Source of the DNA: Escherichia phage UE-S1
Strand: one strand, 5' to 3'
DNA length: 64,000 bases
Sequence record: ON568341.1
The translations under genes and the position numbers were made by a program. The stretch's first letter is position 1, and each line of letters opens with the position of its first letter. The notes below the pieces were generated by a model. The model was not told the DNA's origin, searched no databases, and saw only the letters and a list, made by a program, of their open reading frames with translations. Positions 4,647 through 20,046 of the stretch are shown in pieces.

Positions 4647-4993
4647 TGTTTGAAGCTTATCTTGAGTTTTTAAGGAGTAGTCCAGTTGCACATTCACTTG
4701 CAGGGATTATTCTAACAACTTATGTAACATTTTGGGTAGTTATGTTTATAGGATGGTATTTTAAACGACAATTCTATAAACGTAATGTTGAAGATTTTAT
4801 GAATTCTGCAATTAATCAATCGTTGTTTGCATCAACATTTATTGCATGTATTGTAGCAACACTCACAGGAAAGGTACTACCAGCTTTTTCCGCAGTTTAC
4901 GGTACACTTGGGATGATATGTTTAACTTTTATATTGACCATTAAAATTTGTTGTGTTATGATTGAACTTCGAAACAAGATACCGGAGGAATGA
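4646..4993 (+). CDS. small polytopic membrane protein, family member 3
   Basis: TAATG overlap; WYFKRQ motif; hydrophobic. Confidence 0.5.
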   Translation: MFEAYLEFLRSSPVAHSLAGIILTTYVTFWVVMFIGWYFKRQFYKRNVEDFMNSAINQSLFASTFIACIVATLTGKVLPAFSAVYGTLGMICLTFILTIKICCVMIELRNKIPEE

Positions 4994-5328
4994 TGGAGTA
5001 CTTTATTGATTTACTACCGTGGTATATGAAAGTTAGTACTTTGTACTATATTATTAGTGCTGGATTCTATTTCCTGATGTGGTTCTTTAAACGACCAATT
5101 TCAGTATTCATCTCTGACAACCTACTGCAATTAAAATTACACGCATGGTTTGGTATGTCCATGATTATGCCAATTATTCATTACTCGATGATTAGTAATG
5201 GTTTTCGTTCTAGTGGTGAGCCAGTTGTAATTGTATTTTATTGGGGTTCAACTATAGTATATGTCGGTTTTCTATTGTTCCCGATCATTCATAAATTACG
5301 TGCTAAAGTTCCTGATGCGAGGTACTAA
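4990..5328 (+). CDS. small polytopic membrane protein, family member 4
   Basis: ATGA overlap; hydrophobic; WFFKRP motif. Confidence 0.5.
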   Translation: MMEYFIDLLPWYMKVSTLYYIISAGFYFLMWFFKRPISVFISDNLLQLKLHAWFGMSMIMPIIHYSMISNGFRSSGEPVVIVFYWGSTIVYVGFLLFPIIHKLRAKVPDARY

Positions 5329-5642
5329 TGGATATAGTAACATTGATTTACACGTTGTATTCATTCTATTTTATTATGTGTTGGGTTGGATTTGTATTTG
5401 TACTCAAGATGTTTGATTATGTTGAAAGACAGATAAAAGATTTTTGTATTCCTTTTATCGGTTCAACCATTATTAGTGTTTCTTGTGTGTATTTTTTGGT
5501 GTTTGATCCACCAGATAACACTGCGATGATTGACTTCATGTTACTACCAACCACTATTATTTTTTTATGTAGTCTGATGCCACCTATTAGTCGTGGATTG
5601 ACTGAATTTAGACGCAAACAAAAGCGTAAAAGAGGGATGTAA
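5328..5642 (+). CDS. small polytopic membrane protein, family member 5
   Basis: TAATG overlap; hydrophobic. Confidence 0.5.
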   Translation: MDIVTLIYTLYSFYFIMCWVGFVFVLKMFDYVERQIKDFCIPFIGSTIISVSCVYFLVFDPPDNTAMIDFMLLPTTIIFLCSLMPPISRGLTEFRRKQKRKRGM

Positions 5643-6010
5643 TGGAAATTGCTCTTATTATCTTAACTGCTATGCTGTTTATTAGTACTGTGGTTATAAT
5701 TGGTAAATTCTTTTGTGTATCATTTTTAGAAACGGTATACGATGAAATTGCTGATGATTATGAATTACAAGCCGGATTTTTTATTACGTATTGGCTTAGT
5801 TTATTTTGTCTAGTCATTGCTTGGATTTTGCATATCTTTAAATGGGGTATGGTAGATGGTGATCCTGTCATGGGAATTATTGTTCTAGTGTTTGGTATCC
5901 TTGGTGGTGCAGTGCATAATCTGATGGTTATCTGGCAAACTGTTCAATATGTTTTGGTTCCCTATTTTGAAAAGATGCACAGTACAATTAAAAAACGTAA
6001 ACGAGGTTAG
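5642..6010 (+). CDS. small polytopic membrane protein, family member 6
   Basis: TAATG overlap; hydrophobic. Confidence 0.5.
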   Translation: MEIALIILTAMLFISTVVIIGKFFCVSFLETVYDEIADDYELQAGFFITYWLSLFCLVIAWILHIFKWGMVDGDPVMGIIVLVFGILGGAVHNLMVIWQTVQYVLVPYFEKMHSTIKKRKRG

Positions 6011-6011
6011 T

Positions 6012-6374
6012 ATGAACGGGATAGAATTATCTTTCATTGGTCAATTACTAGTAATGGTGAATACTTTCATTTTCTCATTTATTGCATTGATGTGCATTGG
6101 AAAGTATTTCCACAAACGACCATTATCAAATTTATATGATGTAATAAAAAAGAAATATAGTCCAGCACACACTGTACTTATTAGTAGTTTCAATTTTGGG
6201 TTTGTTGTATTAATAATTGGATTGTTAACATCAACGTCGAATGTACTAATCTTCGGTCTTATGATTTGTTCATTGGTATTAGCAGCAATTATATGTTGTT
6301 TAGTACTGCACCTTGTAGTACTATTATATATAAAGCTCGTTGAAATCCATCAACGTTTAGGGATGAGGAAATAA
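6012..6374 (+). CDS. small polytopic membrane protein, family member 7
   Basis: ATG 6012 with GAGG SD; track ORF 5949 trimmed. Confidence 0.5.
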   Translation: MNGIELSFIGQLLVMVNTFIFSFIALMCIGKYFHKRPLSNLYDVIKKKYSPAHTVLISSFNFGFVVLIIGLLTSTSNVLIFGLMICSLVLAAIICCLVLHLVVLLYIKLVEIHQRLGMRK

Positions 6375-6375
6375 T

Positions 6376-6747
6376 ATGAGTTACCGTGAGATATTTTCCA
6401 TTATTTCAATTATTATGTTCAGTACTGGAACATTGGTGTGGGTATTATATTTTTTCTGTGTAGCACCAGTGTATAATATGTTATGTAATATTAAATCAAG
6501 TGCTGGATATATTACTTTTATGGTCTTTATGGGATATTATTGTCTAAGCATTTTAGGTGTTGTTTTGGTTGTTATATTAGATGTTGGACCGAATAGGGAT
6601 GGTCTGAAAATGTATGAGTTATTAACTATGTTTGGGTGTATGATACCAACAGCACTAATGTTTGTAGCTATTGGTGGTGGATGCATAAAGTTATACAATT
6701 ATTTAAAATCTATTCATCATTCCATTCACAATAAGCGTATGTCATAA
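6376..6747 (+). CDS. small polytopic membrane protein, family member 8
   Basis: GGAAA SD-like; hydrophobic. Confidence 0.5.
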   Translation: MSYREIFSIISIIMFSTGTLVWVLYFFCVAPVYNMLCNIKSSAGYITFMVFMGYYCLSILGVVLVVILDVGPNRDGLKMYELLTMFGCMIPTALMFVAIGGGCIKLYNYLKSIHHSIHNKRMS

Positions 6748-6788: not shown

Positions 6789-7439
6789 ATGATGAAATCA
6801 AAATTAGGTTTGTTTTATGGAAACTACTTCATTAAACAGCGTAAATTCATAAAAAAATACTTCTCTACAGAGAAATCTAGTCCTCTAATTTTTAAAAGAC
6901 CAAAATATAATTTTTACTTAGCTGGTGCTAAACAGTCTAAGAAATTCATTACATTTTTAAATAAAAACAAAATTAAAGCTTCTTATGTTGAAACCAGAAA
7001 GAACTCATCAATAATTCCTGGTGATTTTATTGAATACGGATGTTTCAATATTAAGCACAATGATAACACATACTTTATGGATATTGATTGTAATACATCA
7101 AATCTTTTTAACATTGTAATAAATCCATCAAAACAATATAATGTTTATGGTGATTCAATTATCAAATTAATAAGAAACAAAGATTGGTTTGATTTTGAAA
7201 TAAATGTTTTAGATGAAAACTTTGATGAAGTTCCAGTTAATCCTGAAATATGTGATATATTAAACAGTTTAAAAGGTAGTAGCTACAATATACCATCTGA
7301 TTTAATGTTCCAGTACTCATTAATCCATAAAGATATTGAACAGTACATTATGTGTGCTAAAATCTTGAATTATCTGTATGATGAATTTAAAATGAGTTCT
7401 AAAATAACAGCATATACTCTTTATAATATTTCTATATAA
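6789..7439 (+). CDS. hypothetical protein (216 aa, Lys/Asn-rich)
   Basis: AAGGAG SD; long ORF ending at bidirectional terminator. Confidence 0.5.
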   Translation: MMKSKLGLFYGNYFIKQRKFIKKYFSTEKSSPLIFKRPKYNFYLAGAKQSKKFITFLNKNKIKASYVETRKNSSIIPGDFIEYGCFNIKHNDNTYFMDIDCNTSNLFNIVINPSKQYNVYGDSIIKLIRNKDWFDFEINVLDENFDEVPVNPEICDILNSLKGSSYNIPSDLMFQYSLIHKDIEQYIMCAKILNYLYDEFKMSSKITAYTLYNISI

Positions 7440-7450
7440 TTTAAAATATT

Positions 7451-7476
7451 AAAGCCAGCACAAGAGCACTGGCTTT
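7451..7476. terminator. bidirectional terminator hairpin between convergent genes
   Basis: AAAGCCAG-10 nt loop-CTGGCTTT flanked by A/T runs. Confidence 0.5.
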
Positions 7477-7480
7477 AATA

Positions 7481-8626
7481 TTATTTTTTCCAAGGAAGTA
7501 ACGAAGTTGGAATCTTGATAGGTATATTTGATGCAGCAACATCAGGAAAATTTGCATCTCCACAAACATACAAATTATCGATTTCGTCAATCAATAATGT
7601 ATAGTTGTAACTTCTACAAAAACCGCTTAAGCCTCTTCCCTCTAATGCAGATAAATTCATTTCAGTGAATTGAGTTATATATGTTTCATTTGAACCAACA
7701 CCACATTGACCATTAGCATTTATACCACAAGTAAGCAATTTATTATTGTTTTGAATTACACATGATGGTCCAGCAAGGTTCGTACCTAGTTCACCTACAA
7801 CATTAACTTCACCTTTTAATGATAAATTTTGGATCACTGTACTCATAGGGACACGCGATGTATTTCCAACACCTGCTTGTCCTGAGCCATTAGTGGATGC
7901 AACTTTAACAGTACCGTCATTAAGAAAAATATAAGATGTTTCGATGGTATTAACTGCTTGTGTAGCTGTTGTTATTGTCGTATCCTGCTTGAATTTAAGT
8001 ACATTTGTTGTTGTTGAACCAGATATAAATGTAGCACCTGCGTACCAATAGGTTCCATCTTGAAGTACTAAACCAGTACTTCTAATTGAACACCCTGCAC
8101 TGCGAACATTTTCTATATGACTATATGTAAAGGTTGATACGATTGAAGATTCACCATTACCGAACACCCCACCAGTACCTGCACCACAGAAAAACCATTT
8201 ACCGTTTTTCAAAAATACACGCATACAAGCAGAAATAACCACACTATCAATATCACTTGCAGCTACACCAAAATCGGTAAAGAAATGAGTTATATCAATC
8301 CAATTACCACCAGTATTTGATGGGAGATGGGGAATTACAACTCTAGTCCCTGTGTACCAGATTGTATCATCATCTTTAATAACAAGAGTACCTTGAACAC
8401 CACCCCAATACCTTGTTACATTTGTATTAACAAGCCTCCACTCAGTAGATGATTCAGTGGAGCCATTACCACCTTGACCATAAGATGATGAGCCGTGCCA
8501 GTATAAATTTCCATTTTTATCTAAATAAAATTTTGCATCAGCCGAACATTGCAATCTGTATTTGAATACGGTTTTTGGTGCTGGTGCAATATTTGCATAT
8601 TTTAGCATTCTACCAAAAGGTAACAT
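7481..8626 (-). CDS. RCC1-like beta-propeller protein with MLPFGRM tag (paralog 9)
   Basis: N-term MLPFGRMLKYANI; repeats such as CGINANGQCGVGSNET; AAGGAG SD. Confidence 0.7.
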   Translation of the reverse strand: MLPFGRMLKYANIAPAPKTVFKYRLQCSADAKFYLDKNGNLYWHGSSSYGQGGNGSTESSTEWRLVNTNVTRYWGGVQGTLVIKDDDTIWYTGTRVVIPHLPSNTGGNWIDITHFFTDFGVAASDIDSVVISACMRVFLKNGKWFFCGAGTGGVFGNGESSIVSTFTYSHIENVRSAGCSIRSTGLVLQDGTYWYAGATFISGSTTTNVLKFKQDTTITTATQAVNTIETSYIFLNDGTVKVASTNGSGQAGVGNTSRVPMSTVIQNLSLKGEVNVVGELGTNLAGPSCVIQNNNKLLTCGINANGQCGVGSNETYITQFTEMNLSALEGRGLSGFCRSYNYTLLIDEIDNLYVCGDANFPDVAASNIPIKIPTSLLPWKK

Positions 8627-8704
8627 AATTTTTCTCCTTCATTCATTATACTGTATTTAATCCAATTAAGAAAAGCTAGTATCAAGTACTGGCATTTAAA
8701 AGAA
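8627..8704 (-). promoter_or_regulatory. intergenic cassette: terminator hairpin + TAAATA..TATAAT promoter + SD
   Basis: minus strand reads GCCAGTACTTGATACTAGC hairpin ... TTAAATACAGTATAATGAATGAAGGAG-ATG. Confidence 0.5.
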
Positions 8705-9880
8705 TCAAATTGTCGGAAGTGGGAATTCTTTCATCACCGATGAACTGTTTGCTGCAATATTATCAGGAGATTTACCAGCGTAGTATAATTTATTATTAAT
8801 AAACATATATAGCGTTGCATCGTTCCCTGCTACAAGAGAATTACTTTTCTTAAAAATAACCCCTGGGGGTAAAATAGCTTCAACAAATGAACCTGATTCT
8901 CGTGTTGAATTGTTTGCCAATTGACCATTATTATTATAACCAGTACTATAAATTTTACCTGAACTATAATACACAAGACCACGTGTACTAATGTTTTCTA
9001 TACGAATGAATTCACTATCGTCCGGTACTGTAGTTGATAGAACTGGGTATAACTTATAAGCTGATGTTACATTATTATTACCCAATTGACCATAACCTTG
9101 AAAGCCTAGTGCATACATAGGACATGATTCTGGTGTACCTTTTGTTATAATACCAATATAATTCGAACTACAAAAAATATCCACTGCTTCTACAACATTT
9201 GTACCCTTATATTGAACCCAAGGAAATACATATGATTGTTGTTTGCCATTACCCAAAACACCGGAAGTTGTTGTACCTGTACGCCACATTGTATCATCAA
9301 GTTTAATAATCCAGTTAGCAGTTGTTATAGTTGAACAGAATTTTTTAACATTATCAACCAAGTATGTAAATTTATTATAATATGATGCAGTGTTTATTCC
9401 AAATTTAGCACCAGTATTGTCACCTAACAAATATAAACTATTATCTGTACCTAAAATCAAAACATAATCATGACCCACGTATATCTTTTTGATTTTTGAA
9501 ATACCAAATTGTGTAAAATAGCTGGTACATTCAGTGAATATTGTTACATGATTTGATGTATTATTACCTAGCCATTTATCTAAACCACTATAAAAGAACC
9601 TATCATCATTTGTGCGTATTAGACAAAAAGAATTATTTGTACTGCACCAGAAATCTTTGACATTACTATATATTTTTGTCCATTCAGTTACTTGATTAGT
9701 ATGACCTAAACCAAAAATTCCACCATTTTGTAGTCCCATAGCCCATATTGAACCATTTTTATCAAGAAGCATTGTGCATGTAAATGAATACCCACACGCT
9801 GGAGTAACTAATTTAACAAAATTGGGAATATATGGTAAAACTTTATTCCCATAATTCACCATTCTTCCAAAAGGTAACAT
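8705..9880 (-). CDS. RCC1-like beta-propeller protein with MLPFGRM tag (paralog 8)
   Basis: N-term MLPFGRMVNYGNK; STGYNNNGQLANN, LGFQGYGQLGNNN repeats. Confidence 0.7.
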   Translation of the reverse strand: MLPFGRMVNYGNKVLPYIPNFVKLVTPACGYSFTCTMLLDKNGSIWAMGLQNGGIFGLGHTNQVTEWTKIYSNVKDFWCSTNNSFCLIRTNDDRFFYSGLDKWLGNNTSNHVTIFTECTSYFTQFGISKIKKIYVGHDYVLILGTDNSLYLLGDNTGAKFGINTASYYNKFTYLVDNVKKFCSTITTANWIIKLDDTMWRTGTTTSGVLGNGKQQSYVFPWVQYKGTNVVEAVDIFCSSNYIGIITKGTPESCPMYALGFQGYGQLGNNNVTSAYKLYPVLSTTVPDDSEFIRIENISTRGLVYYSSGKIYSTGYNNNGQLANNSTRESGSFVEAILPPGVIFKKSNSLVAGNDATLYMFINNKLYYAGKSPDNIAANSSSVMKEFPLPTI

Positions 9881-9953
9881 ATTCTCTCCTTATTCATTAT
9901 AATATATATTTAATACAAATAATAATGCCAGTACTCAAATACTGGCATTATTA
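9881..9953 (-). promoter_or_regulatory. intergenic cassette: terminator hairpin + promoter + SD
   Basis: GCCAGTATTTGAGTACTGGC hairpin; GTATTAAATATATATTATAATGAATAAGGAG. Confidence 0.5.
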
Positions 9954-11144
9954 TTACAATTGTCTAGGTGTATCCAGAACATATCTATTTGTGCTAGGAC
10001 CGCCATCATCATAAGTTCCGGTTGAATATATATTTTTCATATCAGCAGTTAGAAATGTACGATACGAACCTCTATATATTTTTATTTTATCATACATATT
10101 ATATGTAATTTGTGCTGGCATTGGACATATAGTAAATCTTCCAATAGTCCCCACTGAACCTACCCCCAATGAGCCAGCATAACTACTCGCATTTAAACCA
10201 GTTGCATATACACCAGAACTCGTAACTAGTATACTAGATTGTGATGGGTATCCAGTATGAATTGAATACAAAGTTCCAGGTGGTAATGTCGTACTATTTC
10301 TCCCTAATACAGCAAGTGCCGAACTGGATGTGGTATTATTACCCCATGCACCATTACTTGCTAAACCACCAACTAGGAACTGACGTACACCCGTACTTGG
10401 ATTTTCCACCAAAGCACTGACTGAACCCATTGAGCATCCAGTGTATTGTAACGTTTTTGTGTATGTTGTACTTGGCTGATATAAAGTATATTCATTATAT
10501 AAAGTCCATGTAGTACTGGAACTTATACCGGATGTACCACCACCAATATATAAATTATTTTGTTTATCAAACAACATTACACAGTTATTTGTTGACATTA
10601 TTTGTGCAATATCAACATTAGGTGTTACTGCTTTTACAAATGAACCATCTGTTATTTGTTGAGTTTTTCCAGTACCATCAGCGAATTGTCTAGCCCCACT
10701 CCAACCAGTACTCCATATTGTATTATTATCCATTAAGAAAGTAAACCACGTAGTACCTGCATACATCTGTTTAATTGAAGTACTTGAACTTTGTTTGTAC
10801 AAATTTTCAATATATTGGTTATAACTTAAAAATGATGTAGTACTGGTTGGTAAACCAATATGACTACCAAATCCACAATAGAAATAATTTAAGTCATTAT
10901 CTTGAACTAACAAAGTTCCTTGTGTGATCCAGCAATCATTAACGTTTTCTCTAATTAATGTCCATGTTCTTAATGCAGTGTTGTTTCCTCTCCCAAACTG
11001 CCCAAAACTATTATTACCTCGTGCATATAGTTGACCATCAGTATAAAGTACAACAACATCAGTATCGGTTGTTAGTATTTTCTTAATTTGAAGTGGGATA
11101 GGTACAATATTCCCGTACTTAACCATTCTTGCAAAAGGTAACAT
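9954..11144 (-). CDS. RCC1-like beta-propeller protein with MLPFGRM tag (paralog 7)
   Basis: N-term MLPFARMVKYGNI; ARGNNSFGQFGRGNNT repeat. Confidence 0.7.
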   Translation of the reverse strand: MLPFARMVKYGNIVPIPLQIKKILTTDTDVVVLYTDGQLYARGNNSFGQFGRGNNTALRTWTLIRENVNDCWITQGTLLVQDNDLNYFYCGFGSHIGLPTSTTSFLSYNQYIENLYKQSSSTSIKQMYAGTTWFTFLMDNNTIWSTGWSGARQFADGTGKTQQITDGSFVKAVTPNVDIAQIMSTNNCVMLFDKQNNLYIGGGTSGISSSTTWTLYNEYTLYQPSTTYTKTLQYTGCSMGSVSALVENPSTGVRQFLVGGLASNGAWGNNTTSSSALAVLGRNSTTLPPGTLYSIHTGYPSQSSILVTSSGVYATGLNASSYAGSLGVGSVGTIGRFTICPMPAQITYNMYDKIKIYRGSYRTFLTADMKNIYSTGTYDDGGPSTNRYVLDTPRQL

Positions 11145-11215
11145 ATTTTCCTCCTTTATTCATTATACTATATTTAATCAAAAAGAAAAGCCAGTATCAA
11201 GTACTGGCCTATATT
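11145..11215 (-). promoter_or_regulatory. intergenic cassette: terminator hairpin + promoter + SD
   Basis: GCCAGTACTTGATACTGGC hairpin; GATTAAATATAGTATAATGAATAAAGGAGG. Confidence 0.5.
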
Positions 11216-11953
11216 TTAGACTGAATTGTTAGGATAATATCTCCCCCTTCCCCATATTATTCGCACAGCACCACCACCAGCAGCCGTATAAGAAGAATTA
11301 TCCCATATACTACCACCACCACCATACCTCTTACCAGCACCACCACTACCAGCACCACCATTATATGAACCACCGTAGCTACCACCAATACCATTAGCAC
11401 CTTGAACAATGATACCAGTACCACCACCCGTACCAATGAACGAGGTACTATAGAATGTACCACCCCCACCGCCGCCACCAGCACCATTTTCACCAGTGAT
11501 TGCATCTCCGTTACCACCTTTACCAGTGTAGCCACCAGCACCACCACCAATGACTGCACCACCACTTACACCAGTGTTGCCACCATTACCACCACCATCA
11601 TTAATAGCGTTAGCAGCTTTTCCACCTAGTCCACCAACCGTATATGCACCAGTGAAGCTAACACATAGTTTTTCAGTTCCACGATATAAACCGTTTTCAA
11701 CTGCTGTAGTAGTGTTGGGATGTGTAAGAGAAACACTTAAGTACTCACCACCAGAAACCGGAATATTATTACGCCACGATAAGCCGCCACCAGCACCACG
11801 TTGACCACCCGGCGAAATAACACATACTGATATTTCGGTAACGCCAGCAGGAACTGTAAATTGTGTTGTTCCTATTGTCGTGATTAATTGTTCACCATGT
11901 GGCTTATATTCAATTTTATTCCCGAACTTAACCATTCTTCCAAAAGGTAACAT
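11216..11953 (-). CDS. glycine-rich protein with MLPFGRM tag (paralog 6, non-propeller)
   Basis: N-term MLPFGRMVKFGNK; long GGxGG runs (..GGGNGGNTGVSGG..GAGGGGGGG..). Confidence 0.65.
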   Translation of the reverse strand: MLPFGRMVKFGNKIEYKPHGEQLITTIGTTQFTVPAGVTEISVCVISPGGQRGAGGGLSWRNNIPVSGGEYLSVSLTHPNTTTAVENGLYRGTEKLCVSFTGAYTVGGLGGKAANAINDGGGNGGNTGVSGGAVIGGGAGGYTGKGGNGDAITGENGAGGGGGGGTFYSTSFIGTGGGTGIIVQGANGIGGSYGGSYNGGAGSGGAGKRYGGGGSIWDNSSYTAAGGGAVRIIWGRGRYYPNNSV

Positions 11954-12024
11954 AATTCCCTCCTTTATTTGTTATACTATATTTAATACAAAAAGAAAAG
12001 CCAGTACTCAGTACTGGCATAATG
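11954..12024 (-). promoter_or_regulatory. intergenic cassette: terminator hairpin + promoter + SD
   Basis: GCCAGTACTGAGTACTGGC hairpin; GTATTAAATATAGTATAACAAATAAAGGAGGG. Confidence 0.5.
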
Positions 12025-13167
12025 TCAATAAGTATCCCAAGGTAATGGTGTCTTCCTAAATCCATACCTGGTTGTGCTCGCACCATCACCAGCAATGTAT
12101 CTACCTATACCACATTGGTATAACTCTGTACTACTACATATAGCACCACCTATAGTACCACTACTCCACTGAATTATATTAGAATATGTTATTGGTAAAT
12201 CACTACATTTAGTATATACAGCAACGGTAGAAGCACCACTAATACCACCAAACATACTTCGCTTAGCACCAGTGTAATATATACCATCTGGACTCATAAA
12301 TGCAGAGGTGTAAGTTGTACTGCAATCCACTGGACTTCTTATTGTATTAAGATCGCCTGGATATGTTCTGACACCAAAGGTGTATACATTACCATCAGTT
12401 GTAATACCATTACCTAACTGCCCACTGTTTTGTCCACCACATGTAAGCAACGATGCAGAACCAGAAACAATTGCAGTAGCATTATACGAAGTGCCCATTG
12501 CAATAGAAGCACCAGACAATAGTTTTGGAGTAACAATAGCTGTTGTATTACCCTGGCCTAATTCACCATTTGTGTTTCGTCCCCATGCGTATATGGAAGT
12601 AGTATCCAACCTACATAGTACTGAACCATAACTAAACGTATATCGCATGTCAATTACCGCAGAAGGCAAATTAACCTTAGTTGCAACACTAATAACACCA
12701 CCAGTAACACCACTGTTTGCGTTCATGTTACGACCATATGCATATAAAGAACCATCTGAAGTTTTAATATGCATCATACCATCTGTACAATATAATGCAT
12801 CTATACTCTCCACCGCAACCGGACCCATACTGGTAGTTATATCGGTCCACCCAAGAGTAGTAGTACTAGAAATTAAGTTATTTCCTGCGTATAGTATTCT
12901 ATTATTATTAGTAACTACAACTGTATATCTGGCAGTAACACCAATTAATCGAACATCAGTATATATCTTAGACCACGCACCTAATGAATTGGTGTTTGCA
13001 TCCAAAAAGCCCAACTGCCCATCTGTATTGTATCCAATGCCCCATACATCACCTGCACTGTCCAATAACACTTCATGTGAAAATCCAATCTTAAAATCTT
13101 TTATTGTAGGAACTACCGGATCTGGTGCAATATTCCCGTACTTAACCATTCTAGTAAAAGGTAACAT
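12025..13167 (-). CDS. RCC1-like beta-propeller protein with MLPFGRM tag (paralog 5)
   Basis: N-term MLPFTRMVKYGNI; WGIGYNTDGQLGF, WGRNTNGELGQGN, CGGQNSGQLGNG repeats. Confidence 0.7.
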   Translation of the reverse strand: MLPFTRMVKYGNIAPDPVVPTIKDFKIGFSHEVLLDSAGDVWGIGYNTDGQLGFLDANTNSLGAWSKIYTDVRLIGVTARYTVVVTNNNRILYAGNNLISSTTTLGWTDITTSMGPVAVESIDALYCTDGMMHIKTSDGSLYAYGRNMNANSGVTGGVISVATKVNLPSAVIDMRYTFSYGSVLCRLDTTSIYAWGRNTNGELGQGNTTAIVTPKLLSGASIAMGTSYNATAIVSGSASLLTCGGQNSGQLGNGITTDGNVYTFGVRTYPGDLNTIRSPVDCSTTYTSAFMSPDGIYYTGAKRSMFGGISGASTVAVYTKCSDLPITYSNIIQWSSGTIGGAICSSTELYQCGIGRYIAGDGASTTRYGFRKTPLPWDTY

Positions 13168-13240
13168 AATTCCCTCCCTTATTCATTATAATATATTTAA
13201 TACAAAAAAGAAAAGCCAGTACTTGAGTACTGGCATTATG
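13168..13240 (-). promoter_or_regulatory. intergenic cassette: terminator hairpin + promoter + SD
   Basis: GCCAGTACTTGAGTACTGGC(13215-13234); GTATTAAATATATTATAATGAATAAGGGAGG. Confidence 0.5.
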
Positions 13241-14350
13241 TTATTTTGGTAAATCAATTTTAGTAAAGACTGCAACATCCTCGCTTGCCCCAGGAATGGC
13301 GTAATACGATCCAGTACTATATACATCTCCGTCTTTGGTTAATATTGATGTTAAACCATCACTAAAAAGAACATCCCTAATCTCACTAACTTCAACGGGT
13401 AATTGTAAATTAGTAGCACTATATATTGCACCAGTTTGAGAATTGTTTAATCCCAAACCACGGTTCGCCCCAACACCCTTCTGATATGTACTAGTAATTA
13501 TCATTTGTGTAGCAGTATTTAAGGCAGGTGAATTCGTCATAAACAACGGAGAACTATTAGGCAAAGTACTTGCAGGAACTGCACGAAATGAAGTTGTATC
13601 TGAACTAAGAAAGTTTGGCGTTTGACCACATACGAAATATGATGTACCATTATAGTAATTAAATGCATTACCACCAATGACTGCATCGATTACACCAGAG
13701 CTACGTAATCCCCACGTGTTAATTTGTGTTCGGTTCCCCGTGCCATGCTGACCCCTGTCATTCCACCCAGAACTATATAACTTATTATCTAATGTAATAT
13801 ACATACTGTCATTTGCATTCGTCATTACTTTACGCACATTAGTAGCACATTGAGTTAATGTGTAAATTGATGATGAACCAATACCTAAAGCACCACGATA
13901 TCCATTAGCTCCTGCACCATAGAGTACTGAACTAGTGCTAAGTACAAATATTAAACCATACGAACATACAATATTAGCAATTTCACTCACTGGTATAGCA
14001 CTGGTAAACCAATTAGTTCTTTCAACTAATACTGTGCTGTAAGAAGTAGTTGTAGACGATGTGAACCAATATGTTTCCCCTGATGTCCATATAGTATTAT
14101 CATTTTTAATAATAACAAGTGCACGATCACCTACGAAAAAATTAGAAACATCTGCACTTACTAATATCCATGAAGATACCGTGTTTTTATTACCATTTCC
14201 AGATTCACCACCTTGATTTCTACCTATGTAATATAAATCATGTGAATCAGTTAATAAGAATTGACCCTGTGTAGATGCACCAACTTTAATTATATTTTTA
14301 GGACCAGGTACAATATTCCCATAATCAAACATTCTTACAAAAGGTAACAT
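13241..14350 (-). CDS. RCC1-like beta-propeller protein with MLPFGRM tag (paralog 4)
   Basis: Start set at conserved MLPFVRMFDYGNI (track ORF extends 5 codons upstream); SSGWNDRGQHGTGN repeat. Confidence 0.65.
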   Translation of the reverse strand: MLPFVRMFDYGNIVPGPKNIIKVGASTQGQFLLTDSHDLYYIGRNQGGESGNGNKNTVSSWILVSADVSNFFVGDRALVIIKNDNTIWTSGETYWFTSSTTTSYSTVLVERTNWFTSAIPVSEIANIVCSYGLIFVLSTSSVLYGAGANGYRGALGIGSSSIYTLTQCATNVRKVMTNANDSMYITLDNKLYSSGWNDRGQHGTGNRTQINTWGLRSSGVIDAVIGGNAFNYYNGTSYFVCGQTPNFLSSDTTSFRAVPASTLPNSSPLFMTNSPALNTATQMIITSTYQKGVGANRGLGLNNSQTGAIYSATNLQLPVEVSEIRDVLFSDGLTSILTKDGDVYSTGSYYAIPGASEDVAVFTKIDLPK

Positions 14351-14425
14351 AACTAAAATCTCCATATAATAATTATAATGTATTTACAAAAAAATACCAG
14401 CACATATTTCAGTACTGGTATAATG
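14351..14425 (-). promoter_or_regulatory. intergenic cassette: terminator hairpin + promoter + SD
   Basis: CCAGTACTGAAATATGTGCTGG hairpin; TGTAAATACATTATAAT...GGAG. Confidence 0.45.
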
Positions 14426-15607
14426 TTATGGTAAAATAATAGCTTGTAACGAACTCATACCCAATGTTGGAACACTCGCCTGTGGTGCTGGAGAATTCAA
14501 TTTTGGTGATGAAACCGCATATGACATTCCTGAACCCAAATCTGGATCAAAAACTACAGCACAATAATTCCCACTATATATAAGTCCATTCTTGTATCCT
14601 TGTGCACTTTGAATGCATTTCGTGAACGTACCAATATCTGTAGTGGCATTTATTAAGTTCCTCCCACGATAACCGCAGGTGTATATGAAATTATCATCGC
14701 CTATGTACATACTAGAATCCCCAGAAGAACTACATAGATACGACATATAAGCACGCATGTTTTTAGGAGCAACTGACAATGTACCTGCATAGAATTTATT
14801 ATTCGAACCCGTAATATTACCATCACCCAATGCACCAAAACTTCCCCAGCCAGTACCGTAATATCTCTTATCACTCAAAAATATAATACAGTTGTTATTA
14901 CACATCTTGATTTGATATATCAATGAAGGATCAATCCCAGGGAATGATTCAGTGAATGTTAGAACAGCCGGATCAGTACTAGCATTACATTGATGATATG
15001 TATTAGTACCAGCGGACAAGATTGTTCCATTAGCTAACAGAATTCTCGCAGTACCAGTACCAGCAGTACAAGCAACTGCACTTCCTGCACTTCCGGTGTA
15101 TATTTGTCTGAAAGTAAAGAAACCAACAGTTTTACTTCCCTGCCCACTCCAACCAGTATTATCAACTCCACACGCCCATACTGAACCATCTTGCATGATC
15201 ATCATTACACCAAAGCGTTCTATTGAAATATAAACAATCTTCGTTGTATCAACTGCACTAAATCTAGAAGTTATATCAGTCCATACCTTAACACTTACCG
15301 CCGTCGCACTGGAAGTAGGATCTTCACCAGCTATCATTATCCTCCCATTGTTAGTAAGATACATTGTCTGACTATAACCAGTACTACAAAACTTAACACT
15401 ATCAGTCTCTGGAACTTTTAACCACTCGTTGTAACGTGTTACGTTAGTGTTATTACCTAACTGATAATAGTTATTCATCCCAGATACATATAACACACCA
15501 TCCTTTATTAAACTATAAGTCGCACTATAGTCACTACAGGTATAACGTGTACCCACAGGTGGCTCAACGACGTTCCCGTACTTAACCATTCTCCCAAAAG
15601 GTAACAT
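14426..15607 (-). CDS. RCC1-like beta-propeller protein with MLPFGRM tag (paralog 3)
   Basis: N-term MLPFGRMVKYGNV; TGWGSFGALGDGN, MNNYYQLGNN repeats. Confidence 0.7.
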   Translation of the reverse strand: MLPFGRMVKYGNVVEPPVGTRYTCSDYSATYSLIKDGVLYVSGMNNYYQLGNNTNVTRYNEWLKVPETDSVKFCSTGYSQTMYLTNNGRIMIAGEDPTSSATAVSVKVWTDITSRFSAVDTTKIVYISIERFGVMMIMQDGSVWACGVDNTGWSGQGSKTVGFFTFRQIYTGSAGSAVACTAGTGTARILLANGTILSAGTNTYHQCNASTDPAVLTFTESFPGIDPSLIYQIKMCNNNCIIFLSDKRYYGTGWGSFGALGDGNITGSNNKFYAGTLSVAPKNMRAYMSYLCSSSGDSSMYIGDDNFIYTCGYRGRNLINATTDIGTFTKCIQSAQGYKNGLIYSGNYCAVVFDPDLGSGMSYAVSSPKLNSPAPQASVPTLGMSSLQAIILP

Positions 15608-15680
15608 AATAAAATCTCCGTAATTAAATTATATAGTATTTACAAAAAATACCAGTACATATTTCAGTACTGACCTATTA
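15608..15680 (-). promoter_or_regulatory. intergenic cassette: terminator hairpin + promoter + SD
   Basis: CAGTACTGAAATATGTACTGG hairpin; TGTAAATACTATATAAT...GGAG. Confidence 0.45.
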
Positions 15681-16802
15681 TTAAAAGGGCAACGGTAACT
15701 CAGTAAAAGTACTTACGTCCGGTAAACCATACATTAAATTAGCATCACCACAGTAATACCACTTCGTAGAATCATGTACCACCGATAAACGCTGTGCACA
15801 TAACACTTCCTGTATGTCATTAAACACCATCGGGACTAACTCATATGTATCTGCAAATGAAGATTCACTACCACTCGCATGAAAAGTATTTGTCCCAGCA
15901 TAAAATAACTGATTAGTGTTCTTACCCACAGCAAATGTTATCAAAACCCCATCATTCTCCCATAAAGAAGAAAACTTATCAACACTACCAGAAAGCTCTG
16001 TGTAAGTACTCGTAATGGCACTCGCCGCCGCCGCATTACCCATCTGTTTATTCAAGTTCTGTCCAGCAATAAAATATCTCGTTCGTGCACTAGAATCAGT
16101 ATATAATAACCCAGTGTTCGTAGTCATCATTCCAATGTCCTTAATCGTCATATCAGTCTGTGAATAACTTAGATACGAAGTTAAATTAACATTATTACCC
16201 AACGAACCGTTAGAACTCATGCCACAACGATGTAATATACCACTTGTATCAACGTAGATAGTACTAACTAAACTCGTATACAACTCTTGTACATTATTCG
16301 CAATAAACACAGCAGTCGCCTTATTACTAACCCCACCAAATGATAGGTTATTATCAAATCCCTTAGCGTATAATTGATTATTAGTAGTCAATAATCCAAT
16401 CGTGTAATAAGACATTTTCATATCCCTTACTGTACTCAAATCTACTGCCCCAAATTGATACGTAACATCTGTCCATTTGAAAATCTGTGCACTACCAACA
16501 CCACCCGTTTCAAACCATTTGTCACCACAGTACAATATGCGATTATCCTTAGTAAAGATAACTGTTAACAATCCACTACCACACGCAAACTTTACATCAC
16601 TTCTAACCTTCGTCCAATCAAGTACATAGGTAGTGGTGTTATTACCTATACCTAACTTGCCATAACGGTTATAACCACGCACCCATAAATCACCACTCTT
16701 AGTAATTAATAGTAATGCGTCTCCTGTACTTATTATTCGAAATCCCGAACTAGGATCAGGGGCAATATTCCCGTACTTAACCATTCTCCCAAAAGGTAAC
16801 AT
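15681..16802 (-). CDS. RCC1-like beta-propeller protein with MLPFGRM tag (paralog 2)
   Basis: N-term MLPFGRMVKYGNI; YNRYGKLGIGNNT, MSSNGSLGNN repeats. Confidence 0.7.
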   Translation of the reverse strand: MLPFGRMVKYGNIAPDPSSGFRIISTGDALLLITKSGDLWVRGYNRYGKLGIGNNTTTYVLDWTKVRSDVKFACGSGLLTVIFTKDNRILYCGDKWFETGGVGSAQIFKWTDVTYQFGAVDLSTVRDMKMSYYTIGLLTTNNQLYAKGFDNNLSFGGVSNKATAVFIANNVQELYTSLVSTIYVDTSGILHRCGMSSNGSLGNNVNLTSYLSYSQTDMTIKDIGMMTTNTGLLYTDSSARTRYFIAGQNLNKQMGNAAAASAITSTYTELSGSVDKFSSLWENDGVLITFAVGKNTNQLFYAGTNTFHASGSESSFADTYELVPMVFNDIQEVLCAQRLSVVHDSTKWYYCGDANLMYGLPDVSTFTELPLPF

Positions 16803-16875
16803 ATTTTCCTCCTTTATTCATTATACTATATTTAATACAAAAAGAAATGCCAGTATCAAGTACTGGCATATTAAT
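16803..16875 (-). promoter_or_regulatory. intergenic cassette: terminator hairpin + promoter + SD
   Basis: GCCAGTACTTGATACTGGC hairpin; GTATTAAATATAGTATAATGAATAAAGGAGG. Confidence 0.5.
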
Positions 16876-18024
16876 TCATTGTATAAATGACATATCTACT
16901 TCTGTATAATTAAGAACGTTCTGTCCAGAAATACCACCCATTACTACTATTGCAAGGCCACAATAATATAATTTTCCAGTATCCGTAAGTATAAGTGATC
17001 CAGATGGACTGCGTACCAAATCACACGAACTATTAAAAGAAGTATAAGAAGGAGTATAGGAGTACTGATTATTATTATTACCAACACCTAATTGCCCAAA
17101 CCCATTCGATCCAGAAGCATATAGAACTTCATCTGCTTTGACAATATGTGATGCCATGTTACCAACACAAGTATATAGAGTATAAACTCCTGAACTCAAT
17201 AATGTCGGAGTTTTATATTGTATATCTGTAGATGTAGAAGTACCACCTGTACCAAATTCGTTCCCATATTGTGCACCGAACTGTTTGCCACAAGCGTACA
17301 AATTATTATCCGATTTGATAAAAAATGTACTCTGATAACTTACATTAAAATCTATAACATCCGAAGAAATCATCGTCACCCCAGTAATAGAAGTTTGATT
17401 ACCCGTGCCCAACTGGTAGTAATAGTTAAAACCACAACCCCATAAAGTATTATCTTCTCGCAAATAAATGTTACCAACTGCCTTTTTAACCGAAGTTATA
17501 GTATCTACTCTTTTGAATGTGTTAAAAGAATTAATGTTTGTACCATCACCAAATGATGATATGTTCGATATATTGTTAACTCCACAACAATACAATGTAC
17601 CATCTTTTGTTATCAAATTCACCTTCATATCATAAAAACTACTCATGTATTTTATATCAGAAACATTAACACCACTTGATGTTATCCACGTAGTACAGTC
17701 CGTCCACAAAGTTTTTCTATCAGTTACACCAGTGAATGCCTTCGTGTTACCAGTGATAAAAACTTTTCCAGTACCTTTCTCTTCATACAATTGACAATCA
17801 CTACTGTTATCTTCCAATAGAACTCGTTTAACATTCTCCGCACAAAGAATAAATTTACTCGATGCTACACCTGTACCAGTACCCCAATTCGTCGCAGAAG
17901 ATGCATACAACTTATCAGTATAAGTATCATGAAGATACATAGAATCACTGGAATATATTTTAAAACGCCCTTCTTTCTCAGGTATAATATTCCCGTACTT
18001 AACCATTCTCCCAAAAGGTAACAT
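16876..18024 (-). CDS. RCC1-like beta-propeller protein with MLPFGRM tag (paralog 1)
   Basis: N-term MLPFGRMVKYGNI; GSNGFGQLGVGNNN, FNYYYQLGTGNQT repeats. Confidence 0.7.
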   Translation of the reverse strand: MLPFGRMVKYGNIIPEKEGRFKIYSSDSMYLHDTYTDKLYASSATNWGTGTGVASSKFILCAENVKRVLLEDNSSDCQLYEEKGTGKVFITGNTKAFTGVTDRKTLWTDCTTWITSSGVNVSDIKYMSSFYDMKVNLITKDGTLYCCGVNNISNISSFGDGTNINSFNTFKRVDTITSVKKAVGNIYLREDNTLWGCGFNYYYQLGTGNQTSITGVTMISSDVIDFNVSYQSTFFIKSDNNLYACGKQFGAQYGNEFGTGGTSTSTDIQYKTPTLLSSGVYTLYTCVGNMASHIVKADEVLYASGSNGFGQLGVGNNNNQYSYTPSYTSFNSSCDLVRSPSGSLILTDTGKLYYCGLAIVVMGGISGQNVLNYTEVDMSFIQ

Positions 18025-18060
18025 ATTCCCTCCTTATTCATTATATCATATTTACCCAAA
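18025..18060 (-). promoter_or_regulatory. promoter + SD of first array gene
   Basis: minus strand GGTAAATATGATATAATGAATAAGGAGGG-ATG. Confidence 0.45.
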
Positions 18061-18065
18061 AAACA

Positions 18066-18094
18066 CTTGACACCCTTTCAGTACTGTTGTACAA
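18066..18094 (+). promoter_or_regulatory. sigma70-like promoter (divergent from array)
   Basis: TTGACA(18066-18071), 17 nt spacer, TACAAT(18089-18094). Confidence 0.5.
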
Positions 18095-18120
18095 TAGAAG
18101 GAATATTAGGAGAACTACAT

Positions 18121-18348
18121 ATGACAAATACCCTTAAGTACTACCTCAATACTCTGCCCGACCTAGAGTACGGGAAGTTTCTCGCAGATAGTTCGTGGCT
18201 GATTGAGCTAAAAAAATATAATAGTCCCGGATGCACCCTTATGATGAACAATGCAATTGATACCCTTATAGTGAGTATTTTACATAGCAACATCTACGGG
18301 GATAACAATAAACAATTAACAAAAATCTTAGTACTGCTATCTCTATGA
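18121..18348 (+). CDS. small protein, MNNHKEYY...LLIYRY-type family (75 aa)
   Basis: ATG 18121 with AGGAG SD; C-term hydrophobic ..TKILVLLSL. Confidence 0.5.
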   Translation: MTNTLKYYLNTLPDLEYGKFLADSSWLIELKKYNSPGCTLMMNNAIDTLIVSILHSNIYGDNNKQLTKILVLLSL

Positions 18349-18557
18349 ACACTATGAGCACTGAACAGTTCTACATCAATGCACTACCAACTAAAAGTCT
18401 TCAAGAAAGCTTACTGTATACACAAAAGAATTTTAAAAACTTCAAACGTTGCCCTAAACTACTGAACTCGTACAGGAATAATATTATAAGAAATGTTTTA
18501 CAAGGAGAAGAAAGTATGCAATACTATCACATCCTTATACTTATATTGGAGTACTAA
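18345..18557 (+). CDS. small protein, tandem family
   Basis: ATGA overlap with previous gene; C-term ..YYHILILILEY. Confidence 0.5.
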   Translation: MNTMSTEQFYINALPTKSLQESLLYTQKNFKNFKRCPKLLNSYRNNIIRNVLQGEESMQYYHILILILEY

Positions 18558-18558
18558 T

Positions 18559-18768
18559 ATGAATACTGAACATAAAGAATTCTACACCAAATACCTCAGT
18601 AACGAAGAACAATTGTTTCTAAGAAGTGTATCACCGGTAAGTACCAATACTCAATTCGGTAGAGATTGCTTTAATAATTGTATACGTAGTACCCTAGAAG
18701 CAATCGAATATAATAACAAAAATATTATGTACTCAGGTTTAATAGGACTAATATTCTTCTATGAATAA
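18559..18768 (+). CDS. small protein, tandem family
   Basis: TAATATG junction; MNTEHKEFYTKYL..; C-term LIGLIFFYE. Confidence 0.5.
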   Translation: MNTEHKEFYTKYLSNEEQLFLRSVSPVSTNTQFGRDCFNNCIRSTLEAIEYNNKNIMYSGLIGLIFFYE

Positions 18769-18955
18769 TCATAAAGATTTCTATGGTAGTAAACTACACA
18801 AACATGAACAGCTATCATTCTCTTTAGCACCACCTATGAGAAAGGATAATCTATATTATAATTACGATTTCAGGATGGCGACACGTTATGCAATAGAACA
18901 TCAGTTCCCTGAAACTAAGTACCGCTCTATCCTGAACCTCATCTTTAAGTTCTAA
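18761..18955 (+). CDS. small protein, tandem family
   Basis: MNNHKDFY N-terminus; overlaps previous stop. Confidence 0.5.
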   Translation: MNNHKDFYGSKLHKHEQLSFSLAPPMRKDNLYYNYDFRMATRYAIEHQFPETKYRSILNLIFKF

Positions 18956-19002
18956 AAACAGCACCAGGGTCCGAGTACTTTAACATAGTAAGGCTAATTA
19001 CA

Positions 19003-19188
19003 ATGAATCATATACGCTACTATTACCAACAACTATCCGACAGGGACAAGTACAGCCACAATTCCCATGTATGGTACTACAAACGCGGCAGTATAAGAGA
19101 CAAACAACATTACTTCTGTATTTCTATTAAAGAAGCACTAACAACTAAGTACACGTACAGAGCAGTACTTAAACTAATCTCTATCTAA
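19003..19188 (+). CDS. small protein (61 aa)
   Basis: ORF in tightly packed array; MNHIRYYYQQL. Confidence 0.45.
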   Translation: MNHIRYYYQQLSDRDKYSHNSHVWYYKRGSIRDKQHYFCISIKEALTTKYTYRAVLKLISI

Positions 19189-19196
19189 GGAATACT

Positions 19197-19376
19197 ATGC
19201 AAGAATTCTATATAGAACATATAACCATAAAAGACCGTTTCATGTACCACACCTTCGTGAAATACTACAAACTGGGAACAAAAAGTACTAAAAATATTAA
19301 TCTCAATAGCTGCATTCATTCTGCACTAACAAAAGATAATCCCTTCAGGGAAATCCTCGCACTAGCATCTGTATAA
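19197..19376 (+). CDS. small protein (59 aa), tandem family
   Basis: AAGGAA SD; MQEFYIEHI..; not in ORF track (under 60 aa). Confidence 0.4.
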   Translation: MQEFYIEHITIKDRFMYHTFVKYYKLGTKSTKNINLNSCIHSALTKDNPFREILALASV

Positions 19377-19386
19377 AGGAAACCAA

Positions 19387-20046
19387 ATGAAACTTAATGC
19401 ACACAGCAAACAATACCTTAAGCACTTTAAGTACCTCAACAGTATTCAAGCAGAATCTTTTACACCAGCATATACGTATCACCCTAATGTACTAAAGAAA
19501 CGAAATAAAAAGAAAAAATCCAGAAATGTTCTCGTATCTAAGAACCTCAAATCGTACTTGAAGAAAAATAATATAGCTCTTGCTTTTATTAATATCTATA
19601 ATACTGATTTAAAAGTATTGAGTACTAATACCAGCACAAAAGCACTAAAGAATGCATCTATCTATATACACATGGATAATATCCCGTGCACTATAATTCT
19701 ATCTTCCGGGAATGTATACTTCTTCGGGAATTGTAATAGCACCCATGATATCAGTACTGCACAATTCCAAATCGGAGATATGTACTGCATGGGTTCAGAA
19801 AAAATACACGATAATATGCACTTCTTCCAAAAGCAACGTACTAACGAAACTGATACAGTACTGCAATTCCTCAAAGAACTAGAACACAAAGAATTATCCG
19901 AGGAAGAAGAATTCATGTACAGTACTGTAATCGATAATCCAGGACTCTATAAAAACGCGTACAAACTAACAAAACATGTACAGGAACTTATCAGTACTGA
20001 TAAGAAAATTCATCACCTCATTACGTATATTTCAAACTATGTATAA
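19387..20046 (+). CDS. hypothetical protein (219 aa)
   Basis: AAGGAAA SD; long ORF inside the small-protein array. Confidence 0.5.
   Translation: MKLNAHSKQYLKHFKYLNSIQAESFTPAYTYHPNVLKKRNKKKKSRNVLVSKNLKSYLKKNNIALAFINIYNTDLKVLSTNTSTKALKNASIYIHMDNIPCTIILSSGNVYFFGNCNSTHDISTAQFQIGDMYCMGSEKIHDNMHFFQKQRTNETDTVLQFLKELEHKELSEEEEFMYSTVIDNPGLYKNAYKLTKHVQELISTDKKIHHLITYISNYV

Follow-up and report, generated by a model that had tools for sequence, protein, structure and literature searches.

In phages SP6/K1-5, in the KP34-type Klebsiella phages and on the branched fibres of CBA120/RaK2, different receptor-binding proteins of a single phage share an N-terminal element that fits into one common adaptor. 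The gp38 adhesin of S16/T2-type phages attaches non-covalently, through its N-terminal part, to the fibre tip, and its specificity resides in the loops between glycine-rich motifs. The T4 capsid-targeting sequence of IPI-III and Alt is likewise a short N-terminal peptide found on unrelated bodies, which sets their incorporation into the particle and is carried in polymorphic cassette loci; it directs proteins to the prohead interior and is cut at L/I-x-E by the prohead protease. Here we describe a short N-terminal tag, beginning MLPF, that heads nine consecutive genes in a 64,000-nucleotide stretch of Escherichia phage UE-S1 (sequence record ON568341.1; the whole stretch is referred to below as the window), eight of them encoding RCC1-like propellers and one a glycine-rich protein of 245 residues. 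We consider it probable that this tag works as an address peptide, bringing small binding proteins of heterologous kinds to one shared virion site, the glycine-rich protein being one such plug-in, and the interest of the locus lies in the tag system rather than in the glycine-rich body.

A common N-terminal tag on unrelated bodies

A six-frame scan of the window for LPFxRM returned nine matches, each at the first residues of one open reading frame (ORF) of the array; the nine ORFs are consecutive, lie on the minus strand and have N-termini of the form MLPFxRM..[YF]xN. The sequence-only reading of this DNA had singled out the fourth gene as a glycine-rich carrier of the tag, and a 245-residue ORF at exactly 11216-11953 (minus strand) does start with MLPFGRMVKFGNK; counted from the low coordinates this gene is the fourth, and in the direction of transcription the sixth of nine. 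Its tag, MLPFGRMVKFGN, follows directly on a Shine-Dalgarno site and fits the pattern M-[LI]-P-F-x-x-h-x-x-[YF]-[GA]-N. RCC1 and RCC1-like Pfam models (PF25390; PF00415 and/or PF13540) match all five of the array propeller genes scanned, whereas the glycine-rich protein gives no RCC1/WD40_RLD match; phrog_4219 matches the three propeller genes scanned against PHROGs (3/3), and the remaining three array genes cluster with the propellers by sequence. Mutual identity among the RCC1 bodies is 23-31%, against 69-100% among their tags. The features of the locus are as follows.

7481-18024, minus strand: nine tagged cassettes in a row (the glycine-rich gene and 8 for RCC1-like propellers), delimited from ORFs, Pfam, the tag scan and repeats
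11216-11953, minus strand: coding sequence of the glycine-rich protein (ATG-to-stop ORF, 245 residues), consisting of tag, linker and a predicted TNF-like/polyglycine-II body
11915-11953, minus strand: N-terminal tag MLPFGRMVKFGNK, codons 1-13, matching the 8 RCC1 paralogues at 8-11 of 13 residues
11219-11896, minus strand: predicted folded body, residues ~20-245, a beta-sandwich followed by GGGNGG, GGGAGGY, G7, YGGGG and AVRIIWG
11959-11965, minus strand: Shine-Dalgarno element AAGGAGG, its 3' end 5 nt before the ATG
11971-11986, minus strand: promoter-like A/T box TTAAATATAGTATAAC, one copy of the per-cassette box, with a putative promoter role
11188-11210, minus strand: intrinsic-terminator-like hairpin of the glycine-rich gene, with a 9-bp stem and TTCTTTTT tail, directly past the stop
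12000-12018, minus strand: terminator-like hairpin of the upstream cassette (gene 12025-13167), the 5' boundary of the glycine-rich cassette

The region around the glycine-rich gene (window 10900-12300) is matched by 35 phage records at 80-99% identity, all of them Asteriusvirus-type jumbo phages of E. coli or Salmonella, including 121Q, PBECO4, phAPEC6 and WPEC5. The window is Asteriusvirus DNA, from a jumbo coliphage of the 121Q/PBECO4/phAPEC6 kind. A degenerate DNA pattern of the tag was scanned against IMG/VR, and a looser protein expression was then run on the loci found. The IMG/VR scan matched 121Q, CBB, GAP32 and several uncultivated contigs of ~355-371 kb; matches to MFPFLGVFNFGN in the first scan lay in an unrelated small prophage ORF and were set aside as chance. 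The expression M-L-P-F-x-x-h-x-x-Y-[GA]-N picked out 55 tagged ORFs in viral contigs and phage records, all with a GGAG-type Shine-Dalgarno element upstream, and a metagenome scan gave 68, the two sets overlapping in that some contigs are in both collections. Each genome encodes 9-14 tagged proteins. Sequence clustering and profile searches placed the tagged bodies in these classes.

RCC1 propellers
Kelch propellers
RCC1+Kelch double propellers, 667-676 residues, found on uncultivated Rak2-like contigs (L020, 6413-8416, minus strand; L034, 1903-3933, plus strand)
ConA-like/Laminin_G_3 domains (phrog_6011, phrog_3545)
glycine-rich domain (phrog_4474)
a class of 168 residues (phrog_6409)
a class of 245 residues (phrog_1062)

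On these assignments the tag is common to at least five unrelated kinds of body. The sequence-only reading had argued from the window that the tag travels with unrelated protein bodies, and had proposed looking for tagged non-propeller proteins in other genomes; both points are borne out by CBB, GAP32 and their uncultivated relatives, among which RCC1, Kelch, RCC1+Kelch, ConA-like and glycine-rich bodies and two unknown classes all carry it.

Most of the PHROG profiles matched by the bodies are far longer than the tagged proteins, and the bodies align to them C-terminally or internally (133-398 of 407, 419-797 of 867, 733-979 of 1115 and 241-446 of 736 profile positions); since they align to parts of longer profiles, most tagged bodies are domains of long proteins in other phages. 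The exceptions are phrog_6011 and phrog_6409, which are matched over nearly their full length. Judging from these alignments, the bodies have in the tagged phage group been turned into small stand-alone proteins headed by the tag.

In CBB eleven genes carry the tag (CBB_144, CBB_247, CBB_536, CBB_537 and CBB_548-554). Two of them are solitary: CBB_144, a homologue of the glycine-rich protein with the N-terminus MLPFSPLIVYGNK, lies between CBB_141, which encodes the anaerobic nucleoside triphosphate reductase, and CBB_145, which encodes the activase of that enzyme; CBB_247 has recombination genes beside it. The tagged genes of CBB at 344368-355464 and those of GAP32 at 1-1961 cluster at the genome end, adjoining the terminal repeat, and are on the minority strand (in CBB the minus strand holds 34 of 554 ORFs).

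Tagged proteins in virions

Electrospray ionisation tandem mass spectrometry (ESI-MS/MS) of CBB identified 55 virion proteins among 554 ORFs (PMC5259590). Nine of the eleven tagged proteins are among those detected, according to the published table (PMC5259590; hypergeometric P=2e-8), an enrichment of about 8-fold in the virion proteome, and CBB_144 itself was detected in virions with 5 unique peptides and 34% coverage (PMC5259590). The six CBB structural proteins to which the authors drew attention because GAP32 lacks them all carry the tag, as do all six RCC1-like virion proteins of phAPEC6 (gp003, 005, 006, 007, 009 and 010; PMC7247149); GAP32 gp1, the reported structural RCC1-like protein of that phage, carries the tag as well. 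Hair-like fibres whose genes of origin are unassigned have been seen on the tails of CBB and phAPEC6, and also on the phAPEC6 capsid (PMC5259590, PMC7247149).

The phAPEC6 virion proteomics could not have detected the glycine-rich protein, because its gene is missing from the annotated record (MK817115.1). There an intact 244-residue glycine-rich ORF (7325-8059) is unannotated, and inside it a 100-residue out-of-frame 'gp004' (7716-8018) is annotated.

Virion association is also what would be seen if the tag were a capsid-targeting sequence of the T4 internal-protein kind, steering the proteins into the prohead core; they would then be packaged within the head, perhaps for injection, and might lose the tag by cleavage. 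The layout of the locus, in which unrelated bodies in tandem, self-contained cassettes share a short N-terminal peptide and related phages vary in gene content, is like that of T4 internal-protein loci, and the authors of the phAPEC6 study suggested an internal role for the RCC1-like proteins, as DNA-organising or inner-body components (PMC7247149). We regard this as unlikely. The bodies are typical extracellular binding folds (TNF-like/glycine-rich domains of fibre tips, ConA-like lectins and propellers), and the same bodies occur as domains of long proteins in other phages. A shared N-terminal peptide is indeed present, but it does not end in a prohead-protease site (L/I-x-E) as a T4-type tag does: it has no conserved glutamate or cleavage motif, nor any conserved acidic residue as used by T4-type or phiKZ-type proteases, and its position 9 varies widely, with K, E, Q, V, N, D, A, T, H and Y all occurring there.

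The tag as a free N-terminal extension

The structure and disorder prediction proposed in the sequence-only reading separates tag from body. An AlphaFold2 monomer model of the glycine-rich protein, built on a 68-sequence alignment, has a mean predicted local distance difference test score (pLDDT) of 93 and a predicted template modelling score (pTM) of 0.89; the fold begins near residue 20, only residues 1-10 fall below a pLDDT of 50 (mean 45), and the block 11-20 averages 66. The model of the RCC1 paralogue at 12025-13167 (pLDDT 90) gives means of 48 for residues 1-10 and 64 for residues 11-20, with the propeller beginning at about residue 21 and the tag outside the fold. In these models, the tag is a free N-terminal extension on two unrelated bodies. 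The same paralogue model rules out the idea that the tag closes the propeller as a velcro strand, its residues 1-10 lying outside the fold at so low a pLDDT.

A peptide that is hydrophobic and aromatic, and unstructured in monomer models, might instead be a folding, oligomerisation or chaperone-recognition motif, such as a trimerisation or assembly-factor handle; the TNF-like fibre tips of cyanophage Pam3, for example, are trimers that need chaperones (PMC9608196). A common destination, however, explains at least five fold classes more easily than a common folding need, and a folding role alone would not predict the enrichment in virions. Propellers and ConA-like domains, for their part, are normally monomeric and have no dedicated chaperones. 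A role of this kind therefore seems to us improbable.

A second tag in another phage lineage

Stand-alone glycine-rich homologues outside the MLPF-tagged phage group tend to begin with another short peptide: among 107 short glycine-rich proteins examined, 38 start with M-x-E-h-h and only a few with an MLPF-like sequence. In two ~150-kb phage contigs the glycine-rich gene lies just upstream of those encoding the terminase, portal and capsid, and a neighbouring ConA-like protein of 216 residues in such a contig, which starts MNEMLML..., is 36% identical from residue 16 on to the MLPF-tagged CBB_549 (E=1e-27). Glycine-rich and ConA-like bodies are thus headed by MLPF...YGN in one lineage and by MxEMh in the unrelated ~150-kb phages; because two body families carry different tags by lineage, the tag follows the phage and not the body. 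Such a lineage-linked swap would be expected of a docking peptide that is specific to its lineage and fits a site equally specific to it.

Variants of the second tag class M-x-E-h-h include MIELL, MLEML, MNEML and MFEMM (contigs L043, 8134-10744; L045, 2459-3109 and 10001-10693; L042, 8998-9840), and L043 has a second, uncalled glycine-rich paralogue at 9176. The glycine-rich homologue of a Seunavirus phage also starts with M-x-E-h-h; the Seunavirus homologue NINP13076 is a lone gene beside the DNA polymerase gene, a context that says nothing about function. Other N-termini that recur among further glycine-rich homologues are MSFGxPVRNGxGIGL and MKRFPGNIIT.

Constraint on the tag and mobility of the cassettes

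Each cassette runs from the preceding stop through a GCCAGTACT...AGTACTGGC hairpin with a T run, a TTAAATATAGTATAAT-like box and AAGGAGG to the ATG, and an AAGGAGG-type Shine-Dalgarno element precedes all nine tagged genes. The repeat search found a direct repeat of 79-105 nt in nine copies across the array, spanning the hairpin and T run, the A/T-rich TATAAT-like box, the Shine-Dalgarno element and tag codons 1-12, so that the glycine-rich gene does have the same cassette flanks as its neighbours, as had been noticed from the sequence. The 26-nt core of the box has 4 matches in the window, all within the array, against 0 in shuffles. A scan for sigma-70-type promoters gave 70 sites against 57±7 in shuffles, an enrichment that is not significant and is uninformative for UE-S1.

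The unbroken conservation from terminator through box and Shine-Dalgarno element to codons 1-12, within a single 79-105-nt repeat, would suit a tag with no function as a peptide, its first ~36 nt being a DNA or RNA element (for translation initiation, or a recombination or gene-conversion tract) homogenised among the cassettes. Indeed ATGTTACC is nearly invariant as DNA across all instances, and the cassettes are clearly shuffled. Nevertheless, the motif is kept in distant genera and on the solitary genes CBB_144 and CBB_247 despite different upstream DNA and several differing tag codons, and the conserved residues P3, F4, Y10, G11 and N12 vary synonymously at the third position (CCT/CCA/CCG/CCC, TTT/TTC, TAC/TAT, GGG/GGA/GGT and AAT/AAC, respectively). 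A purely nucleic-acid element is also at odds with the ~8-fold enrichment of tagged proteins in the virion proteome, and with the other lineage, in which the same bodies share a different common peptide. By these codon and context comparisons selection is acting on the tag peptide, not on the DNA alone, and we judge it quite unlikely that DNA or RNA constraint is the whole explanation.

The cassettes are nevertheless exchanged. When window 7444-18054 is compared with PBECO4 (KC295538.1), six window cassettes have orthologues there in permuted order; the glycine-rich cassette at 11216 and two propeller cassettes, at 14426 and 15681, have no counterpart. About half of the Asteriusvirus records are without the glycine-rich gene. 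As read from these comparisons the array is a recombination hotspot, and because cassettes are permuted, missing or truncated among relatives, the conserved flanks would also act as recombination substrates. The sequence-only reading had favoured a functional signal or a mobile cassette boundary over simple divergence from one ancestor. The evidence points to both: to a signal through the enrichment in virion mass spectrometry, the tag on solitary genes with different upstream DNA and its set-wise replacement in the other lineage, and to a mobile boundary through the permuted order and content of cassettes in PBECO4 and the window.

Phage 121Q has short 'RCC1-like' fragments, gp240, gp237 and gp235 (12253-12459, 14593-14721 and 15922-16146), one of which is a 68-residue tagged ORF; some of its array cassettes appear truncated or decaying.

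The glycine-rich gene, its family and its fold

The glycine-rich protein is the orthologue of 121Q gp243 ('hypothetical protein'), with 95% identity, and 72 of its 245 residues are glycine (29%), with runs that include GGGNGG, GGGAGG and GGGGGGG. It is matched by phrog_4474 over residues 1-244 (E=9e-66). A search of 5.8 billion sequences found 186 homologues, mostly of ~245-275 residues and many with Pfam PF21722 'Glycine-rich domain', while 6705 of 1.84 billion cluster representatives matched in a profile search, 1997 with E<=1e-30; among them are many proteins of 500-5500 residues that have the domain in the interior or at the C-terminus, in some cases more than once. The alignment has conserved motifs (GGGLSWRNNIPVTPGE, DGGGNGG, GGGAGGYSGNGG, poly-G, YGGG and AVRIIWGxGRxFP, with GGGAGGYxGxGG in register), and its invariant positions (L58, G121, G137, A139, G141, Y142, G211, W234 and P241) are all present in the window protein. 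PF21722 is matched by 28 of 69 aligned homologues (best 3.5e-11) and is carried by the direct phmmer matches at E ~1e-13 to 1e-15. By these profile matches the protein belongs to phrog_4474 directly and to PF21722 transitively; its body is unremarkable within a known and very large family of phage glycine-rich domains. PADLOC gave no matches, and a role in anti-phage defence or counter-defence is without support.

The window gene differs from 121Q gp243 (9001-9738 of the 121Q locus) non-synonymously at 13 codons and synonymously at 7. The amino-acid changes fall mostly in the non-glycine loops between glycine-rich motifs, which is consistent with variable binding tips, few as the changes are.

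The description of the body as low-complexity, glycine-rich sequence rather than a propeller needs amending in one respect. The glycine content and the absence of an RCC1 match agree with it, but at a pLDDT of 93 the body is predicted to be folded, and a disordered low-complexity protein is ruled out. In the model a compact beta-sandwich of the TNF-like type has as its cap polyglycine-II helices arranged in a lattice, the predicted fold being that of Pam3 gp24 and Bxb1 gp33. Scores from the fold search were as follows.

cyanophage Pam3 tail fibre (7ypx_A): 12.8
Bxb1 'tail wing brush' gp33: 9.6
Bxb1 tail spike gp29: 8.3
glycine-rich domain of the ALK receptor: about 8
TNF/C1q sandwiches: 3-4

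A Foldseek search of predicted viral structures matched proteins labelled 'glycine-rich domain-containing proteins' in many phages, one of them a Rak2-like Erwinia phage. In Pam3 gp24 the TNF-like domain and the glycine-rich domain make up the fibre's distal tip, where twelve glycine-rich motifs are stacked as a lattice; variable polar residues at the motifs' distal ends have been proposed to bind the receptor, and docking of the fibre to the baseplate is the task of a separate helical domain at the N-terminus (PMC9608196).

When the eight RCC1 paralogues are compared with all frames of the glycine-rich gene by tblastn, they match only codons 1 to ~26, in the same frame, and in blastn only the first ~37-42 nt and the flanks match. 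A frameshifted or decayed propeller, which the sequence-only reading had named as the finding that would overturn it, is ruled out by these matches to tag and flanks alone, by the 186 homologues and by the confident fold. In both orthologues that were checked, those of 121Q and phAPEC6, the ORF is intact, and full-span tblastn matches occur in 17 Asteriusvirus records. That the gene is a pseudogene, a decayed RCC1 cassette or a spurious low-complexity ORF, as its place in a propeller array with identical flanks, its mis-annotation in phAPEC6 (the 100-residue out-of-frame ORF) and the truncated RCC1 cassettes of 121Q might suggest, is effectively refuted by the lack of propeller similarity past ~codon 26 in any frame, by the intact orthologues, by the invariant motifs of a large conserved family with a confident fold and by the presence of its homologue CBB_144 in virions.

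Neighbouring genes

Beside the array, five consecutive plus-strand ORFs of 104-141 residues (window 4990-6747) resemble hydrophobic membrane-protein paralogues, and four of the five have basic C-terminal tails (…KRKRG, …RKQKRKRGM, …LGMRK and …HNKRMS); together they seem to form a tandem family of small genes. Directly after the array, a run of plus-strand ORFs of 59-93 residues (18067-20221) matches 121Q gp249-260 and is probably a further tandem paralogue family, with transcription diverging from that of the tagged array. ARAGORN called one tRNA-Cys of 85 nt at 58070-58154 (plus strand), with anticodon ACA, inside the ORF 58022-58510; this call is perhaps a false positive, because of the unusual anticodon and the ORF overlap.

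A model for the tag system

In the model that we favour, the glycine-rich protein would be a small accessory virion protein in which a short linker joins a flexible 12-13-residue tag (MLPFGRMVKFGN) to a TNF-like/polyglycine-II body. In the Rak2-like jumbo phages, which include Asteriusvirus, CBB, GAP32 and their relatives, the tag stands before many unrelated small ligand-binding bodies, and it would recruit these bodies non-covalently to one virion site, most likely a fibre, whisker or decoration on the outside of the particle, so that the phage would display a variable set of plug-in adhesins. Each cassette is self-contained, with its terminator, promoter-like box, Shine-Dalgarno element, tag and body, and the ~100 bp flank, which includes the tag codons, may serve as recombination homology through which cassettes are shuffled, added or removed. 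We infer that the tag itself mediates incorporation and that the tagged proteins, placed on the outside, bind molecules of the host surface.

Several points weigh against this model. Mass spectrometry reports co-purification with virions only and is silent on the location of the proteins and on dependence on the tag; two tagged Kelch proteins of CBB, CBB_550 and CBB_554, went undetected, and the role proposed by the phAPEC6 authors (PMC7247149) is an internal one. Gene conversion contributes to the near-identity of tags within the array, because the tag codons lie within a longer DNA repeat. As to the body, a Pfam scan of the window protein gave no match even at E<=1, and a family-profile search of PDB sequences matched no solved structure; because no Pfam threshold was reached and no PDB sequence matched, it is a predicted structure that links the protein to Pam3 gp24. 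The dN/dS of the gene against 121Q is 0.68, with 20 differing codons, which are too few to demonstrate purifying selection.

In every published annotation, 10-14 genes per phage of the 121Q/phAPEC6/CBB group are called 'RCC1 chromosome condensation'; the shared tag, the virion mass spectrometry and the second-lineage tag recast them as candidate modular, virion-displayed binding proteins. This provides a testable hypothesis for how these phages diversify recognition of hosts and surfaces, would explain a hypervariable region of the genome, and offers a minimal peptide candidate for loading cargo onto large phage particles.

A stronger form of the model, which we put forward tentatively and find somewhat harder to believe than to doubt, is that the 12 residues MLPFxxhxxYGN are sufficient for any of at least a dozen small binding modules (propellers, lectin folds and polyglycine fibre tips) to be loaded at a single conserved site on the surface of the virion, as a universal plug and socket. 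If this were true, the socket would perhaps be the unexplained 'hairy' fibres of 121Q, phAPEC6 and CBB. Each particle would have a mixed adhesin coat, changeable by recombination, and other lineages would have tag/socket pairs of their own (such as MxEMh in the ~150-kb phages). The annotation 'chromosome condensation regulators' would then be wrong, and the tag could be used to display foreign proteins on jumbo phages.

Comparison with known systems

No description of the tag strings was found in the searchable literature. Recent Asteriusvirus genome papers (Sharanji, fEgEco12) discuss neither the tag nor the glycine-rich gene, a comparative review of jumbo phages mentions lectin domains and not the MLPF tag, and a literature search combining Asteriusvirus, cryo-electron microscopy and RCC1 found only papers on eukaryotic RCC1.

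At the level of the body, the nearest structural relative, Pam3 gp24 (PDB 7YPX), is only 17% identical to the glycine-rich protein and gives no sequence-level match; it docks by an N-terminal alpha-helical trimeric bundle, where the glycine-rich protein has a 12-residue unstructured tag. The 'tail wing brush' gp33 and tail spike gp29 of Bxb1 (PDB 9D93) belong to an unrelated siphovirus of an actinobacterium, and we know of no MLPF tag on gp33. The glycine-rich domain of ALK/LTK is part of an animal receptor kinase, and its likeness to the phage body is at the fold level only.

As a plug-in tip, the closest functional analogue of the glycine-rich protein would be gp38 of S16/T2-type phages (PDB 6F45), which is also a separate small polypeptide with a polyglycine-II lattice. 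The analogy does not extend to structural family. Membership of the gp38 type, marked by a helical attachment domain, a beta-helix, a polyglycine-II sandwich and a match to 6F45, is not supported for the glycine-rich protein: where gp38 has its helical attachment domain and beta-helix, the glycine-rich protein has the 12-residue tag and a TNF-like sandwich. There is, moreover, one gp38 per phage, whereas the MLPF tag is common to many bodies.

At the level of the tag, both known counterparts differ from the MLPF peptide in sequence. The T4 capsid-targeting sequence has an interior target and is cleaved, in contrast to the MLPF tag, which has no conserved cleavage-type residue and heads bodies that resemble external adhesins. 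Interchangeable tailspike systems involve a few large trimeric baseplate spikes, while the MLPF system comprises 9-14 small proteins of at least five fold classes; unlike the tailspike anchors it has no known adaptor, and its genes lie outside the tail module. The glycine-rich gene itself belongs to a known family, and the tag system is a new variation on a known principle.

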